From the NCBI GenBank assembly GCA_965200245.1, contig CBDATS010000013.1, positions 1 to 23,692 of the forward strand: DNA of 23,692 bases, written 5' to 3'. The position numbers were made by a program, and so were the translations under genes. Below are positions 7,480 to 23,388 of the stretch, one piece after another; position 1 is the first letter of the stretch; each line of letters begins with the position of its first letter. The DNA is from a bacterium. Its GTDB lineage: Bacteria > UBA8248. The notes below the pieces were generated by a model. That model searched no databases. It was not told the origin of the DNA and saw nothing but the letters and a program-made list of their open reading frames with translations.

Positions 7480-8253
7480 ATGCAGATGAACAGGCAAGCC
7501 GGCGCGTGCGCAATGTCGGATGCAGAATGGCAGTTGCGGTGTGATCTGGCGGCCTGTTATCAGCTTGTCGATCTTTATGGATGGTCTGATCTTTCGGGAA
7601 CACATATTTCGGCACGTGTACCCGGCAGCGAGGATCTTCTCATCAATCCCTACGGACTGCTGTTCGACCAGATCACTGCACGTTCACTGGTCCGTGTGAA
7701 TCCCGCCGGAGACGTTGTTGGCGACACCGACTGGCCTGTCAATCCTGCCGGGTTTCTCATTCACCGCTGCATTCATGACGCCAGGCCGGATGTGCAATGT
7801 GTGCTCCACACGCACACGCGGGCCGGCAACGCTGTCGCCATGCAACGGGACGGGCTTTTGCCGCTTAGTCAGAAAGCACTCATCCTCATGGGATGGATTG
7901 CCTATCACGAATACGAGGGTGTTGTTCTCGATCCCGGTGAGCAGAAGCGTCTTGTCGCAAGTCTTGCCGACAGGTGCATTCTCGTGATGCGCAACCACGG
8001 ACTGTTGACGTGTGGCGAAAGCGTGGCATCTGCCTTTGTATGGATGCATCGGATGGAGGCGGCTTGCCAGTATCAAGTTGACGGGTTGTCCGGAGCTGTT
8101 CCCTTGCATGTCCCGCGTAAGGCGGTTCAGAAGAGGACGATTGAACAGGGACGCCGCATACTTGGCCCCAATGGCCATGCACGATCGGGCATGGAGTGGG
8201 CTTCATTGATCACACAACTCGAAAACACCCGGGGTACCAGCTACCGGACGTGA
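7480..8253 (+). CDS. Class II aldolase/adducin family protein
   Basis: Motifs EWQLRCDLAACY, THISARVPG, LINPYGLLFDQITA, IHRCIH, VLHTHT and MRNHGLL (metal-binding His). The start may instead be 7486 or 7513. Confidence 0.92.
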   Translation: MQMNRQAGACAMSDAEWQLRCDLAACYQLVDLYGWSDLSGTHISARVPGSEDLLINPYGLLFDQITARSLVRVNPAGDVVGDTDWPVNPAGFLIHRCIHDARPDVQCVLHTHTRAGNAVAMQRDGLLPLSQKALILMGWIAYHEYEGVVLDPGEQKRLVASLADRCILVMRNHGLLTCGESVASAFVWMHRMEAACQYQVDGLSGAVPLHVPRKAVQKRTIEQGRRILGPNGHARSGMEWASLITQLENTRGTSYRT

Positions 8254-8408
8254 ACCGGCATCCCGACAACAGGACATCTTTGAAGCAACCCAAGAGATTA
8301 CCGGATTTATCTGTATTTAACCGGTACACGCGCATCATATAGTATGACAACTTACTTATTTCGCTATACACGTGTCTCCTGATGCCCATGCATATTGATA
8401 GAAGACCA

Positions 8409-8444
8409 GTTTCAATGGGGCTGGTTCGGCGAAGCCGCTGAAAC
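8409..8444 (-). repeat. Solitary 36-nt CRISPR-repeat-like sequence, not of the I-E family (type I-G/I-U-like)
   Basis: The minus strand reads GTTTCAGCGGCTTCGCCGAACCAGCCCCATTGAAAC: a GTTTC start, an internal CGGC/GCCG hairpin and a GCCCCATTGAAAC end. Only one copy was seen. Confidence 0.45.
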
Positions 8445-8628
8445 CTTCCCGGCACAATGATGTTCATCGGCGCACTTTCGCAATAGTCCGTCGCACGTGG
8501 GAGATTTTTCGAACTTGCAGCAAGTAACCCGATTCGTAAAAGTCGGCGCAACGCAAGTGACTCGGTAGATGATCTCGTTGATGAGTAACCACGGAAGTGA
8601 CAATGTGACGATCGATCGCAGCGCAGCA

Positions 8629-11175
8629 ATGGATACCATTTTCGATTGGCCAGGAAAGTCTGACGAACAGGGCAATGAGTATCCTGCGGTTTTGCACATG
8701 CTTGATGTTGCAGCATGCGCAGAACTACTCATCGAGGGACATACGACGTTTCGAGGACTGTCGAGCGCTCAACACCAAGCATTTGTAATCCTGGCGGCAC
8801 TCCATGACGTTGGCAAGTTATCGGAGTCCTTTCGTGCACTGATTCGCGGGAATGAAAAGGGCAACCCTTTACATTGGGAGCTTTCAGATTTCCTTCTGTG
8901 CGGAATTCTGGACAGAACGTTGTCAAAGCTCGGCACTGATGAGTGGGTGCGCGCCGAGTTGTATGCGGCCGTGGCTGGACATCATGGCAGACCGCCGACC
9001 CGAGCAGGTGGTCGGCGGCGCGAGAGGCAAAAACGCCAGCGGGCCATTGGCAGCGGTGAACATGCTGCTCAGGAGTGGGTCTCCCAACTGCTCGATTTGT
9101 TCCCTGATGCATCGCTGGAAGGCATGACGATCGACGAAGCCAAGGCGTTCAGTTGGGCGTTGAGCGGACTCACAGTTGCTGCGGATTGGATAGGATCGAA
9201 CACAAGCTGGTTCCCATTCGGGTCACGTCCTTGGCACTTCGTTGACGCGCTTGCGCAGTCGCGTCGGTTCGCTTCCAGAGCCCTAGAACGGTCAGGCCTG
9301 AATCCTCCTCGTCCGGCACCTATGGAGAGTGGTTTGTTCGCTGGGCTTACTTTGTCCGCTCTACGTCCGATGCAACAAGCTGCTATGACAGTAGAGCTGG
9401 ACAAAGGGCCTCAACTCGTCGTGCTTGAGGACTCCACCGGCACAGGCAAGACTGAAGCGGCTCTTATTCTGACCCATCGCATGATTGCGGCAGGCAAGGC
9501 ACGAGGGCTGTATTTCGCGCTCCCCACCATGGCGACCTCGGACGCTATGTTCAAACGCATGCGAAAAGCTGCAACAGCGCTGTTTGAAACCCGACCGCCA
9601 GTAGTGTTGACGCATAGCCGTGCGAAGTTGGGTGACAGTTTGCGTAAACTGCATGGTCCGTCTTCCGATCACACCCCTGAGGCTGACGGTATTGATTGGT
9701 TGACAGACAGCCGACGACGATCCTCGCTCGCTACGGTCGGAGTGGGGACGGTAGATCAGGCGCTTCTCGGCATTCTGCCCACGCGATTTTCGACGCTCAG
9801 GCTGTTCGGACTTGCCGACAAGGTGCTGATCGTTGACGAAGCGCACAGCTACGATCCCTATATGCAAGAGGAACTCAAGGCCTTGCTGCGGATGCAAGCC
9901 CGTCTCGGAGGCTCGGCCATCCTGATGACAGCGACCCTGCCGTTAACGATGCGCAGTTCGTATGTTGAAGCATTTCAGCAGGGGCTTGCAACCAATGGCC
10001 CGATAATCGACACCAAGCACTATCCCGGGCTTCATCTGATTGGGCGCAATGTCTCTAGCCACGGTGTCGAACCGTGGACCGAGAGCGTCCGAAACGTCAC
10101 AGTCAAGCGCCTGCCCCAAATGGATGACGCGGTGGAAGTGCTGACTAAGGCCGCGGTGCGTGGTGCCGCATGCGTCTGGGTGCGGAATTCGGTCGATGAC
10201 GCGATCGAGGCAGCCGAGGCGTTGCGAGAGTGTGGCATGAAAGTGGATTTGTTACACGCCCGCTTTGCTCTGCACGATCGACTGATACATGAAGAGTCTT
10301 TGGTGCACCGGTTTGGTAGGAGCGGATCGGGACGGGAAGGCTGCATTCTGGTGGCAACACAAGTCGTTGAGGCGTCACTCGACCTCGATTTCGATGTGAT
10401 GGTTTCCGACCTCGCGCCAGTCGGATCGCTGATCCAGCGTGCAGGCCGTCTTTGGCGACATATGGATGTCCGACCCCAGAGCGGACGTCCCGTTCACGGT
10501 CCCGTCTTATATGTGGTATCTCCGGACCCAGGGCAGGTTGAAGGAGAGGAGTGGCTTCAAGATGTGCTCGGCCGTGGGGCTTGGGTCTATCGTTTGGATG
10601 AACAGTGGCTGACGGCAAGAGCGGTCTTTGCCGCGAATGAAATTGCCGCGCCGCATGGTCTGCGAACCTTGATTGAGGCGGTGCATGGTAACGATCTACC
10701 AACTATTCCCAATGCACTCGTGGAAGCACAAACGAAAGCTGAGGGCAATGCATGGGCTCAGGTAGGCGTAGCACGAGGCAATTTGGTGGATCAAGAAGTC
10801 GGTTACTCTACGGGTACGCGGGGAGCGGTAAGCAACGACGCTCTGTTCCCGACCCGGCTCGGGGAACCGCAAGTTACAATGGCGCTCGCCCGACAACTCG
10901 ACGGCCATCTGATCCCGTGGACCCATAAAGACGATTCAGCGGTAGCTTGGGCATTGTCTGAGGTCTCTGCATCTCGGCGACGGTTCGAGCGCCTCTTGCC
11001 GACTCAGAAAACCACGGAAATCCTAGAGGTCAAGAAATCATGGCCAGAATGGCGGCGCGAGGCGTGCCAGATCTGCGTTGTCGATGTGGATGGCAAGATC
11101 GGGAACAAACTTCTATATGACAAATTGCACGGGTTGAGAGCCTGTCCCCTTCGTAACGGGGATGACCCGATGTGA
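8629..11175 (+). CDS. cas3: CRISPR-associated helicase/nuclease Cas3 (HD + SF2)
   Basis: HD domain motifs HMLDVAAC, LHDVGK, GHHG and AADWIGS; helicase motifs TGTGKTEA, DEAH, TATLP, HARF, ATQVVEASLDLDFD and QRAGRLWRH. The start is taken at ATG 8629 (MDTIFDWPGKS). Confidence 0.98.
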   Translation: MDTIFDWPGKSDEQGNEYPAVLHMLDVAACAELLIEGHTTFRGLSSAQHQAFVILAALHDVGKLSESFRALIRGNEKGNPLHWELSDFLLCGILDRTLSKLGTDEWVRAELYAAVAGHHGRPPTRAGGRRRERQKRQRAIGSGEHAAQEWVSQLLDLFPDASLEGMTIDEAKAFSWALSGLTVAADWIGSNTSWFPFGSRPWHFVDALAQSRRFASRALERSGLNPPRPAPMESGLFAGLTLSALRPMQQAAMTVELDKGPQLVVLEDSTGTGKTEAALILTHRMIAAGKARGLYFALPTMATSDAMFKRMRKAATALFETRPPVVLTHSRAKLGDSLRKLHGPSSDHTPEADGIDWLTDSRRRSSLATVGVGTVDQALLGILPTRFSTLRLFGLADKVLIVDEAHSYDPYMQEELKALLRMQARLGGSAILMTATLPLTMRSSYVEAFQQGLATNGPIIDTKHYPGLHLIGRNVSSHGVEPWTESVRNVTVKRLPQMDDAVEVLTKAAVRGAACVWVRNSVDDAIEAAEALRECGMKVDLLHARFALHDRLIHEESLVHRFGRSGSGREGCILVATQVVEASLDLDFDVMVSDLAPVGSLIQRAGRLWRHMDVRPQSGRPVHGPVLYVVSPDPGQVEGEEWLQDVLGRGAWVYRLDEQWLTARAVFAANEIAAPHGLRTLIEAVHGNDLPTIPNALVEAQTKAEGNAWAQVGVARGNLVDQEVGYSTGTRGAVSNDALFPTRLGEPQVTMALARQLDGHLIPWTHKDDSAVAWALSEVSASRRRFERLLPTQKTTEILEVKKSWPEWRREACQICVVDVDGKIGNKLLYDKLHGLRACPLRNGDDPM

Positions 11176-11232
11176 GCGCATTTTACGCAACGTCATCAAA
11201 TGTTAGTTACCCGCCGTTACGGGTTTCGGAGA
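11141..11232 (+). ncRNA. Degenerate repeat-spacer-repeat mini-array (putative crRNA-like regulatory RNA)
   Basis: 11141-11169 (CCTGTCCCCTTCGTAACGGGGATGACCCG) matches the array repeat at 18/29 positions and 12 of the last 13. A 34-nt spacer follows at 11170-11203. 11204-11232 matches the repeat at 13 of positions 3-20 and keeps a stem ACCCG/CGGGT. Confidence 0.65.
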
Positions 11233-11330
11233 TCGGAATCATGCGAATGCTCAAGTTGTCCCTATACGTCAGACTTGGCCAGAGGTGCCGATACGAACTG
11301 TCGCCAGCCTCGTCGCGAAGGTAGTCCTCG

Positions 11331-12836
11331 ATGGCATTGAATTTGATCTCTGACCCTTGGATTCCCGCGCTTCGCAACGGAGAGATTTCCACCATTCGAC
11401 CAGATCAGATCGCTGAGTCAGGCGTTAGCAAACTTGCGTGGCATCGGGCGGATTTCAACTTGGCCTGCCTGGAACTCCTGATCGGGCTGGTTTCCATGGC
11501 TGCTCCACCGAGGGACGATTCCGACTGGCTTGCGCGCTTTGAGGCCCCGGACCCTGAAGAAGTTCGGGAAGCTCTATCGGTGTTCGCACCCTTCTTTGAT
11601 CTGGCAGGGAACGGCGTGCGATTTCTTCAGGATGTTGAGGCCTTCGAGCGTTCGGTCGGCCCATCAGGCGTCAAGTCAGTAGATATGCTTTACATCGATT
11701 CGGCGGGTAATCAGACGGCGGCGAAAAACGCCGATCTAGTGGTCAAACGCGACCGGTTTGCCTCACTTGCTCCTGCAGAGGCAGCGATGGCGCTTTATAC
11801 GCTTCAGGCGTTTGCACCCAGCGGTGGCAGTGGAAACCGTACCTCTATGCGCGGGGGTGGTCCGCTGGTGACTCTCGTCCGGCCCCTCGACGACAGTCAC
11901 GGATCGAACTCACTGTGGCGATTCGTCTTCGCCAACGTGCTGCCCGGAGCACCGCTATCCGCCGGGAATGCCCAAGCGGCGCTACCATGGCTCCGTGCTA
12001 CGCGGACGTCGGAGAAGCAACAGACCGTTATTCCTGGAGAAGTACATCCCCTGGAGGCATTCTTCGGAATGCCCAGACGCTTGCGACTCGTGTTCGAAGA
12101 TGACCGCGTCGTCGGTGTGGTGCAAAGACCCTACGGAACGAACTATGTTGCGTGGCAGCACCCGCTGACAGCCTACTATCGAACAAATGAGGACACCCCT
12201 GAGTGGCTGCCGGTTCATCCCAAGGCGGGTCGTCTCAGCTATCGGAACTGGTTGGGCATCACCATGGATTCCGCTGGGGAACGAAACGGAACGCGGCGCA
12301 CAGCTGCGACCGTGTACGAATGTAGCAACCGTTCGAGCGCCCCAGATTTTGAACTAATGGTTGGCGGCTGGGCGATGGATAAGATGACGCCGGTTGACTT
12401 CACCCTCGACGTATATCCCGCGTTTCGGGGCCTTCGCGACGAAGGGGAAGAGCGGGTTCACCGACTGGTGGAAGCTGCAAACGCCGCGTCAGGCGCTCTT
12501 CGCAAGGCGCTTAAAGCTGCCTGTCAACTCGATGGCGTGAACGGGGATGCGGTTGTCGAAACATTCTTTGCCGAGACGGAGCAACACTTCACGCAAGCAG
12601 TTCGGCAGATAATCAATGACACTGGTTCGGATGTCGAAGAGATATGGTATCGAACCTTGCGGGAGCAGGCCATTCGCATTTTTGACTTACGGGTTATCAA
12701 CGGTCTCGCCGACCACGACATTGCTGGAATCGAAAAGCGAATTAACGCCAAGCGCCGCTTGCACGGCGCGTTGGCGAAGGGCGTTCGCAAGGCGATGAAT
12801 TTGAAAGCGCCCGACAAGAAAGGACAACCAACATGA
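11331..12836 (+). CDS. cas8e: Type I-E Cascade large subunit Cas8e (CasA/Cse1)
   Basis: Motifs NLISDPWIP, LQAFAPSGGSGNRTSMRGGGP, FFGMPRRLRL and HPLTAY; follows cas3. Confidence 0.96.
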   Translation: MALNLISDPWIPALRNGEISTIRPDQIAESGVSKLAWHRADFNLACLELLIGLVSMAAPPRDDSDWLARFEAPDPEEVREALSVFAPFFDLAGNGVRFLQDVEAFERSVGPSGVKSVDMLYIDSAGNQTAAKNADLVVKRDRFASLAPAEAAMALYTLQAFAPSGGSGNRTSMRGGGPLVTLVRPLDDSHGSNSLWRFVFANVLPGAPLSAGNAQAALPWLRATRTSEKQQTVIPGEVHPLEAFFGMPRRLRLVFEDDRVVGVVQRPYGTNYVAWQHPLTAYYRTNEDTPEWLPVHPKAGRLSYRNWLGITMDSAGERNGTRRTAATVYECSNRSSAPDFELMVGGWAMDKMTPVDFTLDVYPAFRGLRDEGEERVHRLVEAANAASGALRKALKAACQLDGVNGDAVVETFFAETEQHFTQAVRQIINDTGSDVEEIWYRTLREQAIRIFDLRVINGLADHDIAGIEKRINAKRRLHGALAKGVRKAMNLKAPDKKGQPT

Positions 12837-13354
12837 GGGACAGACCGACTGTCGGCGGAATCGTCGTCGAGTGGCACAGGTCAGTACTGAGCCATGACGA
12901 CGGTGCGACAAGGGCAACGCGAGCCCGGCTAAGGCGATGTGAATTACCTGCAGACGCCCTTATCATCGAGGCGACGCACGACCTCAACAGTCGGCTGGAA
13001 GCAACTGGGATCGTGCCATCGGCTGATCAGCTTGCCCTGCTTGCAACGACTTTTGCTCGCCTCAAAGGCACCCACGGGTATAGGCTCGCCGCCCTGTTTG
13101 GAACGAAAACACCTAAAGATGGGCCACGTCCACTTAGCGAGCTGAGATTCCAAGCGTTGATTCGCGTTCGCTCGCACCGTGAACTGATTACGCCACTTCG
13201 TCGTTCGCTCGCAGTTCTTGGTCCTGACCTCACCTGCAATGGACGAGCATTGGCTGATGATTTGTTTTGGTGGAACGACAAGGCTCGAAATAGTTGGTGC
13301 TTCCAGTATTTCGGCGCTGGTTTCGCCGCCGATACCCAAGGAGAGATTGTGTAA
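12833..13354 (+). CDS. cas11: Type I-E Cascade small subunit Cas11 (CasB/Cse2)
   Basis: Motifs RARLRRC, LSELRFQAL, LADDLFWW and a C-terminal W..QYF; ATGA overlap with cas8e. Confidence 0.93.
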   Translation: MRDRPTVGGIVVEWHRSVLSHDDGATRATRARLRRCELPADALIIEATHDLNSRLEATGIVPSADQLALLATTFARLKGTHGYRLAALFGTKTPKDGPRPLSELRFQALIRVRSHRELITPLRRSLAVLGPDLTCNGRALADDLFWWNDKARNSWCFQYFGAGFAADTQGEIV

Positions 13355-14421
13355 TGACCCGCTTTGTACAGCTTCACTTTTTAACGGTTTATCCCCCCTC
13401 GAATCCGAACCGGGATGACATGGGTCGCCCGAAGACTGCAATCTACGGTGGTGTTCATCGTCTTCGGCTATCCTCACAGTCGCTGAAACGAGCAGCTCGA
13501 TTCTCGTCCGTTATGTCCGAAGCACTGAAGGACAACATGGGCAAACGCACTCAACGCCTCGGCGACGAGGTTGTTATACATTTGCGTAAGCAGGGCGCAG
13601 ACGACAACAAAGTGCGCGAGATCGCCCGAAGGGTGGTCGAGGTGTTTGGTAAGATTGACAGCGGAACTAAGGACTCCGTCCACATCAAACAACTAGCGTT
13701 CATATCGCCAGAAGAACGGCAGGCGGCGTTTGAAATGGCCGAACGTGCACTGGGTGGTGAGCCAATAGAGAAAGAATACAAGAACCGCGTTAAAAAGATT
13801 CTACGCACATCAGACGGTGCAGTAGATCTCGCGATGTTTGGACGGATGCTAGCTGATGCACCGGAATTCAACCGCGAAGCGGCAGTGCAGGTATCGCATG
13901 CGATCACGACACATCGGGCGGAGGTGGAAGACGACTATTATACTGCCGCCGACGATCTCAAGCGGCCGTCCGAGGACGTGGGTGCGGGATTTGTTGGCGA
14001 GGCGGGGTTCGGTTCCGGCGTTTACTATTTGTATGTTTGCATCGATACCAATCAGCTAGTGGAGAATCTCGCTGGTGACCGCGTTCTGGCGCGCAAGGTC
14101 ATGGAAGTAACGACCGAGGCTTTCGCCACCGCTAGCCCCACTGGCAAGCGCAACAGCTACAACCACCACACACGGGCCTCGTATGTACGTGCCGAGGCAG
14201 GAGACCAGCAACCACGGAGTCTGGCGGCGTCATTCCTCAAGCCAGTCGAGGGAGAGGATCTTCTGCGCGAATCCATCGACAGGATTAGAAAGACTGCGTC
14301 AGCTATTGACAGTGCTTATGGCCCGTCTACTGACGGTTTGATGGAGATGGATCTGGTCGGTGAAGTCGGTACATTGAAAGAAGTCAAGGGATTCGTTGCA
14401 CGGCAGGTGGCCGATGCGTGA
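13354..14421 (+). CDS. cas7: Type I-E Cascade backbone Cas7 (CasC/Cse4)
   Basis: Motifs MTRFVQLHFLTVYPPSNPNRDDMGRPKT, SSQSLKR, VDLAMFGRM, AAVQVSHAITTH, DYYTAADD and PTGKRNSY. The start at 13354 overlaps the cas11 stop (TAATG). Confidence 0.97.
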   Translation: MTRFVQLHFLTVYPPSNPNRDDMGRPKTAIYGGVHRLRLSSQSLKRAARFSSVMSEALKDNMGKRTQRLGDEVVIHLRKQGADDNKVREIARRVVEVFGKIDSGTKDSVHIKQLAFISPEERQAAFEMAERALGGEPIEKEYKNRVKKILRTSDGAVDLAMFGRMLADAPEFNREAAVQVSHAITTHRAEVEDDYYTAADDLKRPSEDVGAGFVGEAGFGSGVYYLYVCIDTNQLVENLAGDRVLARKVMEVTTEAFATASPTGKRNSYNHHTRASYVRAEAGDQQPRSLAASFLKPVEGEDLLRESIDRIRKTASAIDSAYGPSTDGLMEMDLVGEVGTLKEVKGFVARQVADA

Positions 14422-15157
14422 GCATCTAATATTCCTTCTGGCTGCGCCGATGGCGTCCTTTGGTAGTTATGCGGGCCATAAACGTCGGGGCAGCGAACTC
14501 GTGCCTATGCGTTCTGCGGTATTGGGATTAGTTGGTGCGGCGCTCGGAATCGATCGAGCGGATAGTGGGCGCCACATGGCTCTTCGCGCATATTCCGTGG
14601 CCGTGCAACCCTTCCAGGACTCAATACCGCTCCGCGACTATCACACAGCGCAAACGGCCCCAACCGCCAAGGCCAAAGCACCACCGACCCGCAAGATTGC
14701 TCTGGAGCGTGCTGGCCGTGACGCCCACACGATCATTACGATGCGCGATTACCGTTGCGATGTGTTGGTCGGCGTAGCGCTTTGGGGCGACGGCAGGTGG
14801 ACGCTCGATAATCTGGCCAGGGACTTGCAACGACCGAGCTTCCCGCTCTACCTCGGCCGCAAGTCATGTCCTTTAGCGAGTCCCCTAAATCCTGTGATCG
14901 TGACTACGCCGGGTCCGGTCGAGGCGTTAGCCAGAATTGAGATTCCTGAATGGCTGCATAGCGGCAAACGGTTGAAAGGAGATGTAATACAGCACACCGT
15001 TTTTTCCGATCCTGTGGAAGGTGTCGATCAGCCGACATCAACCGAGCAAGTACCAGGCGAGCCGCTCGACCGTCAAGCTTGGACATTTGGCGAATGTACT
15101 CTCTGGCATTTGAGCGGCGTTCTAGGGGAACGCGAGAGCATGGGGGTCGACGCATGA
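14414..15157 (+). CDS. cas5: Type I-E Cas5 (CasD)
   Basis: Motifs LAAPMASFG, SAVLGLVGAALGIDR, LRDYHT and LYLGRKSCP; start at ATG 14414 (MREHL). Confidence 0.96.
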   Translation: MREHLIFLLAAPMASFGSYAGHKRRGSELVPMRSAVLGLVGAALGIDRADSGRHMALRAYSVAVQPFQDSIPLRDYHTAQTAPTAKAKAPPTRKIALERAGRDAHTIITMRDYRCDVLVGVALWGDGRWTLDNLARDLQRPSFPLYLGRKSCPLASPLNPVIVTTPGPVEALARIEIPEWLHSGKRLKGDVIQHTVFSDPVEGVDQPTSTEQVPGEPLDRQAWTFGECTLWHLSGVLGERESMGVDA

Positions 15158-15879
15158 CATATTACCTGACCCGTGCAGTACTTGACCGGAAAGCACCGGA
15201 ACACGCGCTCAAGTCTTTGCTGGATCCGCCGGACGGGGATGCAGTGCTCAACGCCCATCACCGGTTGATGTGGACCTTGTTTCCTGATCGATGTGCAAAA
15301 CGCGATTTCCTGTGGCGCTCGGACGAAAATGGAAAATTCCTGATTCTTTCGGCGCGGAAACCCCAGGTCTCGCGCTTGTTCAAACCGTTGGAGTCTAAGC
15401 CCTTCGCCCCGTTGTTGGCGGTCGGAGACCAGCTTGGTTTCATCCTCCGCGTAAACGCCACAAGAGACCGGCGGTCAGGACCGCAGGATGACGTCTCAAT
15501 GGGTGCACGGTCCAGACCGACCAAGAACCGTCGTGTCGATATAGTAATGCATGGAATCCAAGAGCAAGGCCTTCAAGGTGGGACTACAGGTGTCGATTCC
15601 CGCGCCGCTCGCCGTTTGGATGTTGCCGATGAAGCGGCGCGAGCGTGGATGAACAGTCAAGGCGAACAACGTGGTTTTTCGATCGTGGAATTGGCGGTGG
15701 AGGACTACCGTGTTCGCAAGTTGAAACGCCGACGCGGCGCTGACGCCACATTCGGTGTGCTTGATTTAAAGGGAATGTTGACTGTTTTCGATCCGGAGGT
15801 CTTTACAAACGCCTTGCTCGGTGGGTTTGGCCGTGCCAAGGCCTATGGTTGCGGCCTAATGTTGATACGCCGCGCCTGA
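15154..15879 (+). CDS. cas6e: Type I-E crRNA endoribonuclease Cas6e (CasE/Cse3)
   Basis: Motifs HHRLMWTLF, RDFLWR, FILRVNAT and the glycine-rich loop GFGRAKAYGCGLMLI; start at ATG 15154 (ATGA overlap with cas5). Confidence 0.96.
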   Translation: MTYYLTRAVLDRKAPEHALKSLLDPPDGDAVLNAHHRLMWTLFPDRCAKRDFLWRSDENGKFLILSARKPQVSRLFKPLESKPFAPLLAVGDQLGFILRVNATRDRRSGPQDDVSMGARSRPTKNRRVDIVMHGIQEQGLQGGTTGVDSRAARRLDVADEAARAWMNSQGEQRGFSIVELAVEDYRVRKLKRRRGADATFGVLDLKGMLTVFDPEVFTNALLGGFGRAKAYGCGLMLIRRA

Positions 15880-15895
15880 ACTACGGTTTGAGTCT

Positions 15896-17114
<1,219 letters not shown>

Positions 17115-17205
17115 TGAGCGAGTTGGTGTAGTCAGGACCTCTGAAATCTTTGGTAGAGATTGTGCATTTTGATTCTATGATATGAATCACCAGGTTACAA
17201 TAAGT
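17115..17205 (+). promoter_or_regulatory. CRISPR leader with IHF-like site and upstream motif
   Basis: AT-rich stretch. AATCACCAGGTTA (17185-17197) is one mismatch from WATCAANNNNTTR and ends 8 nt before repeat 1. TTGGTAG (17150-17156) lies about 50 nt upstream, as in E. coli-type I-E leaders. Confidence 0.8.
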
Positions 17206-20200
17206 GTGTTCCCCGCCCACGCGGGGATGAACCGACTTTCGATCTCTTGCCATACGGTTGCCATACCGTGTTCCCCGCCCACGCGGGGATGAACCGAATA
17301 CACGAGCAATCACAATTGATATTCCACAGTGTTCCCCGCCCACGCGGGGATGAACCGTTCATCTCCTCAAAATACTATTACGACCATGGGTGTTCCCCGC
17401 CCACGCGGGGATGAACCGCTCAATCAGGATAAAGTCCCGATGAAATGGTTGTGTTCCCCGCCCACGCGGGGATGAACCGCTCGATGGTATAGCCGAAGGT
17501 GCCGAGGTCAAGTGTTCCCCGCCCACGCGGGGATGAACCGTTTTATGAGTGATACTCGTACGGTTAGTTTCAGTGTTCCCCGCCCACGCGGGGATGAACC
17601 GCTTGTGTGCTCTCAGCGTAATCTGCTCAACATGTGTTCCCCGCCCACGCGGGGATGAACCGATCTTCACCTCCCTCTTCTGGGCGTTGTCACCGTGTTC
17701 CCCGCCCACGCGGGGATGAACCGGCCACGCCATTACCGAGCCACTAATCCGCCCGGTGTTCCCCGCCCACGCGGGGATGAACCGATTCAATCAGCTGAAT
17801 AGACGGATGCGTCGGCGTGTTCCCCGCCCACGCGGGGATGAACCGGTGGTGGTTGTGTGTTCGCCGCGATGTTCGTCGTGTTCCCCGCCCACGCGGGGAT
17901 GAACCGAACAAAGCATAGCCCTGTGCCGTGTCGTGTGCGTGTTCCCCGCCCACGCGGGGATGAACCGAACAAGCCCACGGCTCTAACCGACTTCGGTTTG
18001 TGTTCCCCGCCCACGCGGGGATGAACCGCCGTCGTACCACCACCGTAGAACCAGAATTCAGTGTTCCCCGCCCACGCGGGGATGAACCGCGAGATACAGA
18101 GCAACCAGCTAACTTCCCTTAGTGTTCCCCGCCCACGCGGGGATGAACCGACCCCCAAGTTTGAGCAGTTCAGGTTACATGTGTGTTCCCCGCCCACGCG
18201 GGGATGAACCGATCATCAACCTGACACAGGGAACTCAAGAATGGTGTTCCCCGCCCACGCGGGGATGAACCGTCATGAATGCTGGTCGAAGTTCATCATG
18301 GTCAAGTGTTCCCCGCCCACGCGGGGATGAACCGTTCAGACGAATTGGTTAGAGACCGATACGGCAGTGTTCCCCGCCCACGCGGGGATGAACCGTTTCC
18401 CCGCTTCAGTTTTTCAGAATACGGGGAGTGTTCCCCGCCCACGCGGGGATGAACCGTGGGCAGCACGAGCCTCGTGTTACAGGTTGGTGTGTTCCCCGCC
18501 CACGCGGGGATGAACCGTGGATCGATCCCGGTGTCCCGAGCGGTGCCGGGTGTTCCCCGCCCACGCGGGGATGAACCGAACAAAGCACAGCCCGGTCCCG
18601 TATCGAGTTCGTGTTCCCCGCCCACGCGGGGATGAACCGTACAACGTCTTCACCTTCCTCATGATACCAGGGTGTTCCCCGCCCACGCGGGGATGAACCG
18701 ACGATCCGAATACTGGCGAGGAGAACGTTCAAGTGTTCCCCGCCCACGCGGGGATGAACCGCGGGATCGTGATGTTGTTGCTCTCAAGCGGAAGTGTTCC
18801 CCGCCCACGCGGGGATGAACCGCGTCAAATTGAAGCGGATAGGAAAGCTGCTGAGTGTTCCCCGCCCACGCGGGGATGAACCGTCAGGTTCCTCGTCACA
18901 ATGGAACCAATTGCAGTGTTCCCCGCCCACGCGGGGATGAACCGAGCATCTATACCAATATCCGAAAGCTGCTGATGTGTTCCCCGCCCACGCGGGGATG
19001 AACCGTCGATACAGCAGGCAGGGCATCAACCGGGCTGGTGTTCCCCGCCCACGCGGGGATGAACCGTGAACACGCACTTGCAATATATTCAGACAAAAGT
19101 GTTCCCCGCCCACGCGGGGATGAACCGGCGTGCGCTTGCGAAGTTCATCGTCACATATTGTGTTCCCCGCCCACGCGGGGATGAACCGGACATCAGCATA
19201 TGGACCGGCGCCGGGGAAGCGTGTTCCCCGCCCACGCGGGGATGAACCGAACATCTTGATGTTGCCATCATGCGGCTTGATGTGTTCCCCGCCCACGCGG
19301 GGATGAACCGTGCGCCGCGGTTGCCAACCCGCCATAGATCAGGTGTTCCCCGCCCACGCGGGGATGAACCGCAGTATCGACAGATCTTGCCGTGCCGTTT
19401 CAGGTGTTCCCCGCCCACGCGGGGATGAACCGCTGATTCAATGGATGCGCTTTCTGAAGAGATGGTGTTCCCCGCCCACGCGGGGATGAACCGGATCTCC
19501 GACACCGTCACCAACCTGTAACACGGTGTTCCCCGCCCACGCGGGGATGAACCGGTCGATTGCCTGTTGTGCAACCTGAGAAAGTTGTGTTCCCCGCCCA
19601 CGCGGGGATGAACCGGCGTTCAGGAGGGTTGCAGAGGATCCCGATCAGTGTTCCCCGCCCACGCGGGGATGAACCGCCTTATCCCCGATTTGCGAATCGG
19701 TCGGCAGGGTGTTCCCCGCCCACGCGGGGATGAACCGAGGGTTACTGCGACCACCGCAGGTGCCTCCACGTGTTCCCCGCCCACGCGGGGATGAACCGTT
19801 GGATTGGATTGAAACCGGAACGCACCGTATGTGTTCCCCGCCCACGCGGGGATGAACCGTACGAATCATTGGTCGTGTTCGTTGTGTTCCAGTGTTCCCC
19901 GCCCACGCGGGGATGAACCGCACGGGGCGTTGACGGACCGGCAGCGACAACGGTGTTCCCCGCCCACGCGGGGATGAACCGAGACAGATACCGACGCTGA
20001 TTCGTTCATTGCCGTGTTCCCCGCCCACGCGGGGATGAACCGTCTCGACGCGACGGTGAGTTGAGTTTGATTATGTGTTCCCCGCCCACGCGGGGATGAA
20101 CCGCCTAACGGTCGTATTCAGGTGCTTGCGTTCCGGTGTTCCCCGCCCACGCGGGGATGAACCGGTGAAGTTGGACGGTATCGCGACGGCGGCCGAGTGT

Positions 20201-23200
20201 TCCCCGCCCACGCGGGGATGAACCGCTCGCGGGGATCGCGCCAGGTGCTGATACCAAGTGTTCCCCGCCCACGCGGGGATGAACCGTCAGTGCAACAGTT
20301 CCGGCATCCGCACGAGCAGTGTTCCCCGCCCACGCGGGGATGAACCGTTCAATGCAGTACAGAACAGTTCAATTTGATAGTGTTCCCCGCCCACGCGGGG
20401 ATGAACCGGTGCCGAGGTCAATGTTCAAGCGGACTGGGATGTGTTCCCCGCCCACGCGGGGATGAACCGGCCGCTATGATGTCCGCTTGTGTGCGGTCTG
20501 GGTGTTCCCCGCCCACGCGGGGATGAACCGTGGTGTTCTCCACCGGGCAGTTCTGGCGGGCGGTGTTCCCCGCCCACGCGGGGATGAACCGTCACGATAG
20601 ACGTGCCGGTTGGCAATTGGTTCGTGTTCCCCGCCCACGCGGGGATGAACCGTTTATGAGTGATACGAGAACCGTTAGTTTCAGGTGTTCCCCGCCCACG
20701 CGGGGATGAACCGTTGAGATCGATGTACCGGTTGGCAATTGGTTCGTGTTCCCCGCCCACGCGGGGATGAACCGGCCAAGCTGGACGGCATTGCGGCAAA
20801 TGCGGAGTGTTCCCCGCCCACGCGGGGATGAACCGCCGACGGCAATTTTCCTGTTCAAGATGTGCTGGTGTTCCCCGCCCACGCGGGGATGAACCGGTCG
20901 AAAAAAGGTCAATTACGATACAGATTAGGTGTTCCCCGCCCACGCGGGGATGAACCGCAGATTCGTTTATCGACAACAAGCCGACATTGGTGTTCCCCGC
21001 CCACGCGGGGATGAACCGGCGACACATTCTATTACAGAACGCGCAACGGGGTGTTCCCCGCCCACGCGGGGATGAACCGCCACCGGAACAAGCTATGCTG
21101 GGGCACAATCGGTGTTCCCCGCCCACGCGGGGATGAACCGACACCTGTCGTCGTAATATTTCCGGTGAATGTGTGTTCCCCGCCCACGCGGGGATGAACC
21201 GCCACCGGAACAAGCTATGCCGGGGCGCAATCGGTGTTCCCCGCCCACGCGGGGATGAACCGAATGTCGCTGATAGGCAAATTGAAGCTCAACGGTGTTC
21301 CCCGCCCACGCGGGGATGAACCGGTTAAATCGGGTTAGATCGTGGTCTGGACGGTGTGTTCCCCGCCCACGCGGGGATGAACCGAAATTGCGTCGAATAA
21401 CCTGAGTGCTGGTAGAGTGTTCCCCGCCCACGCGGGGATGAACCGGATTATCCTGACTGCTGATCAGACGATCACAGGTGTTCCCCGCCCACGCGGGGAT
21501 GAACCGGCGTCTTCGGGTCTTCCGGGTAGTCCAACGGCGTGTTCCCCGCCCACGCGGGGATGAACCGTCCGGCAATCCGGTTCCAATAGCCAATGGACAG
21601 TGTTCCCCGCCCACGCGGGGATGAACCTTGGTATCGTTGGTTTGTTCCGGATAAACGAATGTGTTCCCCGCCCACGCGGGGATGAACCGCAACCAGCTAA
21701 CCTCGCTCAATCGAGGCGACAGTGTTCCCCGCCCACGCGGGGATGAACCGAGGCACAACGCAAGGCCGACGAGATCGCGTCGGTGTTCCCCGCCCACGCG
21801 GGGATGAACCGCGTAAATCCGGATCATAGCCAATTCAATTTCGGTGTTCCCCGCCCACGCGGGGATGAACCGGCCGCAATCTCCTCGCCCTGTATTGTCG
21901 ACGTGTGTTCCCCGCCCACGCGGGGATGAACCGTGCATTGTAATCTCGACGATTGCACGCCTGAGGTGTTCCCCGCCCACGCGGGGATGAACCGTGCTGG
22001 TAGATCTAGCACGTTCGACGAAATTGGTGTTCCCCGCCCACGCGGGGATGAACCATCAACGCCCGCCGTGTTCGTCTTGCCTCGAACGTGTTCCCCGCCC
22101 ACGCGGGGATGAACCGGCCTGCGTCACAGGGCGTAACGGACAGGCGGAGTGTTCCCCGCCCACGCGGGGATGAACCGTGGACGGGTCGGTTCGTGACGCA
22201 AACGGATTGGTGTTCCCCGCCCACGCGGGGATGAACCATTTGCGAACCAGGAAATGTAAGTGTAACTGACGTGTTCCCCGCCCACGCGGGGATGAACCGC
22301 CACAAGGTGGAATGGCAAAGGCTTGGCAAGAGTGTTCCCCGCCCACGCGGGGATGAACCGTGTGGTTCCGCATGAAAACGAGCTTGTGGTGCGTGTTCCC
22401 CGCCCACGCGGGGATGAACCGTCGATTGCCTGTTGCGCAACCATCATCAGCTTGTGTTCCCCGCCCACGCGGGGATGAACCGGCTGATGAAATTGCGGCT
22501 AACAACCTGAATGCGTGTTCCCCGCCCACGCGGGGATGAACCGCCTTATCCCCGATTTGCGAATCGGTCGGTAGGGTGTTCCCCGCCCACGCGGGGATGA
22601 ACCGGTAGGCATGAACCTCGATCGAATGAACTCAGAGTGTTCCCCGCCCACGCGGGGATGAACCGACGAGCTCATCATATGTGATGAGGACGAGGATGTG
22701 TTCCCCGCCCACGCGGGGATGAACCGTTCACTAATCATCCCTTCTCTTCTCGGGCTCGGTGTTCCCCGCCCACGCGGGGATGAACCGGGTTGACGCTCTC
22801 AATTCGCAATGCATACGCAGTGTTCCCCGCCCACGCGGGGATGAACCGTCAACGTTCAATCGGATTGGAACGCAACCAGCGGTGTTCCCCGCCCACGCGG
22901 GGATGAACCGCCAACCATCCCGACCCTGCCGACCGATTCGCAGTGTTCCCCGCCCACGCGGGGATGAACCGTTTACCGTGTGGAAAGAAATAAATGGATT
23001 ACCGTGTTCCCCGCCCACGCGGGGATGAACCGGTCAAGCTGGGTTAGATCGTCATCTGGACGGTGTGTTCCCCGCCCACGCGGGGATGAACCGACCGAGA
23101 TATCAGCATATGGACCGGGGCGGGTGTGTTCCCCGCCCACGCGGGGATGAACCGATACGAGAACGGTATCTTTCAGAATTCCGGTAGTGTTCCCCGCCCA

Positions 23201-23388
23201 CGCGGGGATGAACCAGACCACGATCGGCCCCTCCTCGTAATTCACGAAGTGTTCCCCGCCCACGCGGGGATGAACCGGCCTTGTGTTGGCAATTCGTAAC
23301 GCGTACGCGGTGTTCCCCGCCCACGCGGGGATGAACCGTATCCGACAACCGTCGGGATATTTTCACGCCAGTGTTCCCCGCCCACGCG
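17206..23388 (+). CRISPR. Type I-E CRISPR array: 102 repeats (last truncated), 101 spacers
   Basis: The 29-nt repeat GTGTTCCCCGCCCACGCGGGGATGAACCG was counted unit by unit. 97 spacers are 32 nt and 4 are 33 nt (S1, S18, S93, S99). Four repeats end in T or A instead of G. The final repeat at 23371 keeps only its first 18 nt. Confidence 0.99.

Follow-up and report, generated by a model that had tools for sequence, protein, structure and literature searches.

Self-repression of Cascade by a degenerate mini-CRISPR (short palindromic repeats, clustered and regularly interspaced) is already established for type I-E systems. The preprint of Liu et al. (bioRxiv 10.1101/2023.03.10.532045) characterizes CreR of Salmonella enterica as a degenerate two-repeat mini-CRISPR situated before casA/cas8e, and Shmakov et al. 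(2023; PMC10120712) place mini-arrays between cas3 and cas8 in approximately 19% of bacterial type I-E loci. The subject of this report is a unit of the same type in a bacterium of the UBA8248 lineage (GenBank assembly GCA_965200245.1, here G000; contig CBDATS010000013.1, forward-strand positions 1 to 23,692); this 23,692-nt stretch is hereafter called the window. The unit overlaps the stop codon of cas3 and adds no new mechanism to those described. We surmise, with a probability of roughly 0.55, that it is an orphaned member of a conserved CreR-type family, which occupies the 3′-end of cas3 on the sense strand in one clade of type I-E systems, and that, though cutting and loading probably continue, it lacks any DNA site on which to act as a repressor and is decaying. 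Its parts are as follows, PsiR1 and PsiR2 being the upstream and downstream pseudo-repeats and crRNA standing for CRISPR RNA.

8569 to 11175, plus strand: cas3 (HD and helicase), whose final 35 nt coincide with PsiR1 plus 6 nt at the start of the pseudo-spacer
11141 to 11169, plus strand: PsiR1, CCTGTCCCCTTCGTAACGGGGATGACCCG, degenerate repeat with 18/29 identity to the array repeat
11170 to 11203, plus strand: pseudo-spacer, ATGTGAGCGCATTTTACGCAACGTCATCAAATGT, 34 nt, holding the cas3 stop TGA at 11173-11175
11204 to 11232, plus strand: PsiR2, TAGTTACCCGCCGTTACGGGTTTCGGAGA, degenerate repeat with 14/29 identity to the array repeat
11162 to 11224, plus strand: predicted 63-nt crRNA-like RNA, assuming a Cas6e cut after position 21 of each pseudo-repeat

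The assumed cut site, following position 21, is the one established for Cas6e on repeats of E. coli and Thermus. The unit stands in the sense orientation, the two pseudo-repeats start 63 nt apart, and 5974 nt separate its end from the start of the array, which bears out an earlier note, made from the letters of the window, that had described two degenerate repeats around a 34-nt spacer some 6 kb from the array. That note was also accurate on the parts. The upstream copy retains TCCCC/GGGGA, within a stem GUCCCC/GGGGAU, the upper part of which is interrupted by a U:C mismatch, and a 5′ handle ATGACCCG identical at 7/8 positions to the array handle ATGAACCG; the downstream copy has kept a 5-bp hairpin ACCCG/CGGGU and lost the handle. 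The A:U pair of this hairpin, noted earlier as a change from the array repeat, turns out to be typical of the related loci (A-U in 5/6, G-U in 1), and the top pair of the hairpin is C:A, compared with C:G in the five relatives. PsiR1 encodes the Cas3 tail, as had been claimed; the reading frame 8569-11175 ends in CPLRNGDDPM and the TGA. The first 11 nt of the pseudo-spacer, ATGTGAGCGCA, are similar to the seeds of related units, and its length (34 nt, versus 32-33 nt in the relatives) exceeds any spacer implied by the array spacing. An ordinary CRISPR array, or the decayed end of one, was rejected because the unit lies about 6 kb away, beyond eight cas genes, and has a spacer of 34 rather than 32-33 nt.

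What the unit shares with CreR is a PsiR1 that retains the 8-nt handle, a PsiR2 that retains the hairpin part, and a position upstream of cas8e; the relatives of the window unit further share with the Salmonella element a pseudo-spacer that partly matches a site before the cascade operon flanked by a protospacer-adjacent motif (PAM). By comparison with CreR, PsiR1 of the window lies inside the cas3 frame with the stop in the pseudo-spacer, the window copy is without a target, and the PAMs of the relatives are ATG, ATT, and AAC instead of AAG. The mini-arrays of PMC10120712 agree with the window family in their cas3-cas8e position and in the better preservation of the upstream repeat, and have their target downstream at the cas8 promoter, as do the window's relatives; the E. 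coli example given there is interpreted as antisense to cas3 in its transcription; the window family, by contrast, is in the sense orientation. The pipeline of that study kept only repeat-like matches outside open reading frames (ORFs), and since PsiR1 is coding, units of the window type were probably missed or counted as single repeats. Published regulator frequencies may consequently be underestimates, as intergenic-only surveys would overlook a sub-family with PsiR1 inside cas3. The literature searched yielded no account of a mini-array that extends over the cas3 stop, although the supplements of the CreR and Shmakov papers may contain examples. CreA, from the CreTA module of Haloarcula hispanica (type I-B; Cheng et al. 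2021, PMC8501985), is also a degenerate mini-CRISPR RNA, one that directs Cascade to the repression of a promoter by partial pairing, but it represses an adjacent toxin gene, whereas neither a toxin nor a target was found for the window unit. The viral Cracr/Racr RNAs (bioRxiv 10.1101/2024.10.29.618823; PMC10651486) are likewise repeat-like RNAs occupying Cas proteins; they are phage- or plasmid-encoded, while the window unit is chromosomal and inside the cas operon.

Conservation of the mini-array in related loci

Judged by repeat identity alone the two pseudo-repeats are at chance level, for in 17.1 kb of non-array sequence, both strands included, five positions reach at least 18/29 and 14/29 is common. 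Nor is their predicted folding exceptional: PsiR1 and PsiR2 give -9.9 and -8.0 kcal/mol, with z-scores of -1.25 and -0.76, compared with -14.0 kcal/mol for the true repeat, and both hairpins are less stable than those of the two relatives that were folded. These values, and the TTT which follows PsiR2, are what one would see if PsiR2 were an intrinsic terminator of cas3 and PsiR1 an accident of coding. Other observations run counter to a chance resemblance. No terminator was predicted in 10800-11450, the six loci show no conserved T-run after PsiR2, and the Cas3 tails vary in frame and length while the nucleotides are conserved. A covariance model was trained on the five relatives only, with the window left out, and its top match in the window lies at exactly 11141-11232 with 61.2 bits (E 1.6e-14); the best true repeat-spacer-repeat unit of the window reaches 50.7 bits with the same model. 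As the model scores the mini-array above every array unit in the window, the unit is, on this measure, no accident but a homologue of the conserved family. Given that match, and the same unit with self-targets in five other loci, the explanation by chance is effectively refuted and retains next to no credibility.

The relatives were obtained in two ways. L010 and L011 were found in reference genomes by Cas8e alone (both of the two loci returned, 59% identical), and each carries the unit over the cas3 stop. A metagenome scan, using a pattern that specified nothing beyond the last part of PsiR1 and the first part of PsiR2, yielded 19 loci, namely four multi-match ordinary arrays, one array edge (L020), 11 apparent chance matches (two of them identical), and three junction loci, L024, L034, and L035, with the unit between the cas3 tail and the start of cas8e. 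In all three the PsiR2 hairpin is completed by a complementary 3′ half, even though the pattern made no such demand. A phylum-wide pattern search returned a match in 1/51, which was G000 itself, and none of five viral pattern matches was homologous to the family.

Alignment of the six units (the window and the five relatives) reveals a mean column identity of 74%. In the PsiR2 helix 97.2% of cells are paired, the single unpaired cell being the C:A of the window, and both helices together are paired in 91% of cells, as against 44-53% in slid-partner controls. In L011 pairing has been retained by means of two G-U/U-G changes, which are workable only as RNA of the mini-array strand.

Targets of the mini-arrays

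In 5/5 relatives the pseudo-spacer matches a plus-strand site located 62-113 nt after the spacer start. Between 15 and 18 of 20 counted positions match and pairing stops at about nt 17-23; shuffled spacers equalled these matches in 0, 5, 4, 0, and 0 of 2000 trials. The target PAMs are ATG, ATG, ATT, ATT, and AAC, the last in L035. Within the seed, none of the five has a mismatch at positions 1-5 or 8, L011 alone has one at position 7, and all have one at position 6, a base skipped by type I-E Cascade in reading its target. A sigma-70-like -35 hexamer falls within the target in 2/5 (L011 and L035), and none was predicted in the other three by the same simple rule. By its sequence this layout is the architecture of CreR and of the published type I-E regulatory mini-arrays (bioRxiv 10.1101/2023.03.10.532045; PMC10120712; bioRxiv 10.1101/2024.10.29.618823), that is, of autorepression by binding without cleavage. 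In the relatives the unit is most likely transcribed together with cas3; Cas6e would cut both pseudo-repeats, and Cascade, once loaded with the product, would park 62-113 nt downstream on the PAM-flanked partial match at the cascade promoter, which it would repress and not cut.

No such site was found for the window copy. Pairing of the pseudo-spacer over some nine or more PAM-proximal bases at a cas or toxin promoter, present in 5/5 relatives, is missing here. The best pseudo-spacer match in the window's intergenic region is 10/20, which 1774/2000 shuffles equalled. A candidate for a decayed target at 11241 (ATC followed by ATGCGAATGC) was dismissed, having seed mismatches at positions 4, 7, and 8 in a region where the best score is no better than that of shuffles. 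A rescan disclosed no convincing PAM-plus-seed target anywhere in the window, as the earlier note had stated. Scores did not exceed 9 of 15 in the array leader, in the DNA upstream of cas3, or in the cas3-cas8e region of contig C9, which carries a second type I-E locus of G000. The note's suggestion that the target may lie elsewhere in the genome found no support, since in the whole assembly 8 other sites match positions 1-5 and 7-11, compared with a shuffled mean of 7.5, and none continues beyond position 13. Searches of viral contigs with the pseudo-spacer pattern and of plasmids with the 63-nt RNA each gave zero matches.

These results divide the proposal that the unit specifies a crRNA-like regulatory RNA. 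Homology and the targets of the relatives sustain the part which makes it a mini-array of the CreR type, and the part concerning current regulation by the window copy is unsupported for want of a target beyond chance. The further proposal of an antitoxin like CreA finds no backing, neither a target nor a toxin candidate having been found. The only small frame nearby (11241-11324, 27 residues) is not significantly like the small ORF found in the relatives; 579/1000 intergenic shuffles score equally, and the notion that it is a remnant of that ORF, prompted by likeness in a motif LSLxVxLxQR, was abandoned.

It could nevertheless be that the window unit still serves as a crRNA-like guide to a target that is situated on unassembled or mobile DNA, or is bound by seed pairing only, for instance at the cas3 start of the second type I-E locus on C9. 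The good preservation of the mini-array (61.2 bits, handle 7/8 intact) would suit such a guide. At C9:10191-10227, on the minus strand, an AAC PAM and ATGTGtGC overlap the likely cas3 ATG at C9:10223; all 7 seed positions match, position 6 is mismatched like that of every target in the relatives, the PAM is also used by L035, and the two type I-E systems of G000 share the 8-nt handle, so that cross-talk is conceivable. The match, however, ends after position 8 (9-10 are mismatched), as against 15-18 of 20 in the relatives; a 7-position seed is expected approximately 450 times by chance in 7.35 million positions, and the site was found post hoc in about 2.7 kb of cas control regions. Taken with genome-wide matches at the shuffled expectation and the zero counts for viral contigs and plasmids, this makes an active guide unlikely.

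We therefore return to the orphan interpretation, according to which the protospacer has been lost from the window genome. Because its hairpins fold and its handle is 7/8 intact, the copy is probably still cut and loaded, yet it would have no DNA site to repress and may be heading for decay, presumably without function. In that state its role could be no more than that of competing for Cascade.

Overlap with cas3 and probable decay of the unit

The cas3 frame enters PsiR1 in 6/6 loci, in two different frames and with tails of differing length, from which it follows that the nucleotide element is conserved and not the Cas3 peptide. The cas3 stop starts 2-21 nt past the predicted Cas6e cut in 5/6 loci (12 nt in the window), and lies in the PsiR1 loop in L010. 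Processing of the guide by Cas6e would thus leave a cas3 mRNA without a stop codon. Conceivably the guide role has been lost or become secondary, and the unit is maintained as a cis-acting Cas6e site (cut at 11161/11162) that removes the cas3 stop, splits cas3 from the cascade message, and couples Cas3 to the level of Cas6e. In a fuller version, non-stop rescue would lower Cas3 as Cas6e and Cascade rise, ribosomes in PsiR1 would hinder maturation of the guide, and the window would retain only this cis link after loss of the target, which would account for the upkeep of the unit. If true, stop-codon removal would represent a novel means by which a CRISPR system keeps its nuclease and its surveillance complex in balance.

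The entry of cas3 into PsiR1 in all six loci and the position of the stop in five of them speak for a cis-acting site, and an RNA-library contig spanning 10800-12405 fits co-transcription. The overlap may, on the other hand, merely mark where the ORF ends, and four related loci do without the unit. The mini-array stretch is contained, as assembled contigs, in two RNA-library runs and two other runs; one of the RNA-library contigs spans 10800-12405 and one starts at 11136, and since assembled contigs can neither reveal RNA ends nor exclude DNA carry-over, they neither support nor refute processing and do not amount to evidence of transcription. We accordingly consider upkeep as a cis-acting site improbable, and the rescue-based version of it equally doubtful. 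Relative to the window, A>G at 11253 occurs in contigs of runs X3, X5, and X6, and C>T at 11533 in those of X3 and X5 only; within the mini-array these three runs show no differences from the window.

The four related loci (G011, G020, G030, and G032; two from the same genus and two from the same class) possess homologous cas3 and cas8e genes, with Cas8e 66-67% identical, and in them the junction is approximately 80 nt shorter and the mini-array absent; the unit is consequently dispensable in the lineage. Identity of the window to these loci (67% over the first 110 residues of Cas8e and 61-63% over the last 184 of Cas3) is roughly equal to that with L024 and L034 (69-71% and 64-66%, respectively), which carry the unit. 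The length of the intergenic region after the PsiR2 hairpin is 106 nt in the window, 120 nt in L035, and 298-350 nt in the other four relatives. Alignments of window 11226-11330 with the junctions of the G011 type or with the long intergenic regions of the relatives were discarded as evidence of homology, their scores being reached by 59-466 of 500 shuffles, and a resemblance by eye between the pseudo-spacer and the Cas3 tail of the G011 type was unsupported, the family model R1 finding no sense-strand remnant there. The simplest history is that the ancestor possessed both unit and target, that the window genome lost the target, and that the four other loci lost the whole unit. A guide outliving its target, beside relatives retaining both and relatives losing both, would form a small series on the loss of such circuits.

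Among the six units the C:A break in PsiR2 and the 34-nt spacer are unique to the window copy. Several observations weigh against reading it as a decaying orphan. The mini-array still scores high and the first 11 bases of its spacer look ancestral, so that either the loss is recent or something else maintains the unit. The mismatch in the upper stem of PsiR1 need not be disabling, being also found in L035, whose target is excellent, while at the same stem position A:C stands in both arrays (144 and 178 repeats) of the second type I-E locus; the A-to-C change of the handle is common to L011, which likewise has a target. Three of the five relatives came from a pattern that fixed parts of PsiR1 and PsiR2. 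The comparison of stems across related type I-E loci, which the earlier note had called for, upheld conserved pairing but no significant covariation, 184/500 shuffles reaching the observed score with six sequences. Finally, the assembly is incomplete (95.8%, 15 contigs), and a target may sit on unassembled DNA or a plasmid.

Surrounding locus and other mini-arrays

The window holds a complete type I-E system, in the order cas3, cas8e, cse2, cas7, cas5, cas6e, cas1, cas2, and then the array. Its features beyond cas3 and the mini-array are these.

11233 to 11330, plus strand: rest of the cas3-cas8e intergenic region, with no pseudo-spacer match, predicted sigma-70 promoter or terminator, or significant likeness to the relatives
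11331 to 17114, plus strand: open frames of cas8e (11331-12836), then cse2, cas7, cas5, cas6e, cas1, and cas2
17206 to 23338, plus strand: CRISPR array of 101 repeats, 97 equal to the consensus and 4 with a different last base

The array repeat is GTGTTCCCCGCCCACGCGGGGATGAACCG, and the array spacing of 61-62 nt implies spacers of 32-33 nt. The 27-residue frame at 11241-11324, MRMLKLSLYVRLGQRCRYELSPASSRR, has GGAG 9 nt before its start, lies in the frame of cas8e, and stops two codons before the cas8e start; there is no evidence that it is a gene. An Rfam search of 10900-17400 gave zero matches at E up to 1, and scans of 10800-11450 and 8150-8700 for sigma-70 promoters and terminators found none, with a model that may not fit the promoter type of the host.

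The host assembly amounts to 3.68 Mb in 15 contigs and is 95.8% complete with 8% contamination. Its second type I-E locus, on C9, has cas genes at approximately 10223-18360 and an array at 18766-27564, and its Cas8e is 48% identical to that of the window. This locus has two large arrays (144 and 178 repeats, on contigs C9 and C11) with a variant repeat, GCGTTCCCCACACACGCGGGGATGAACCG, in which the 8-nt handle is the same as that of the window array and the stem has an A:C mismatch. Given the 8% contamination, the two loci might stem from different strains.

A conserved small ORF of 57-71 residues with the motif EFxGxFLGLRTPR...A.GRW is located between the CreR target and cas8e in 4/5 relatives, and is absent from the window and from L035.

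L010, 1292 to 1504: small ORF
L011, 1322 to 1495: small ORF
L034, 877 to 1086: small ORF
L024, 331 to 546, minus strand: small ORF

Its end overlaps the cas8e start in L010, L024, and L034, and in L011 it stops 5 nt short of the cas8e ATG. Searching with a profile of the small ORF recovered 13 proteins among 1.84 billion representatives, 11 of them small; searches returned no Pfam family, no word-index homologue, and no Atlas lead. In L011, at about 1270-1340, two tandem copies of a 32-nt segment, which includes an ATG and a strong Shine-Dalgarno sequence, stand immediately before this ORF.

Repeat-like units also appear outside the family. The viral contig L047 contains, at 300-500, at least three type I-E repeats (GTGTTACCCGCACGCGCGGGGATGAACCG) with short spacers, which may represent a phage-borne mini-array unrelated to that of the window. 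A protein search of 401 genomes gave four loci, two of which lack a mini-array (one with a short junction, one with a full array before cas8e). A third, L041 (G413), has a weaker candidate just past the cas3 stop, with 20.8 bits under model R1 (L041:3285-3377; approximately 1220-1312 when oriented). The fourth, L042 (G240), is an unrelated type I-E locus, its Cas8e being 40% identical to that of L010, with a mini-array of its own at L042:1123-1240, about 20 nt past the cas3 stop; directly after its PsiR2 the start of the spacer is repeated over 16 nt, with AAG before the copy and TTGACA behind it.

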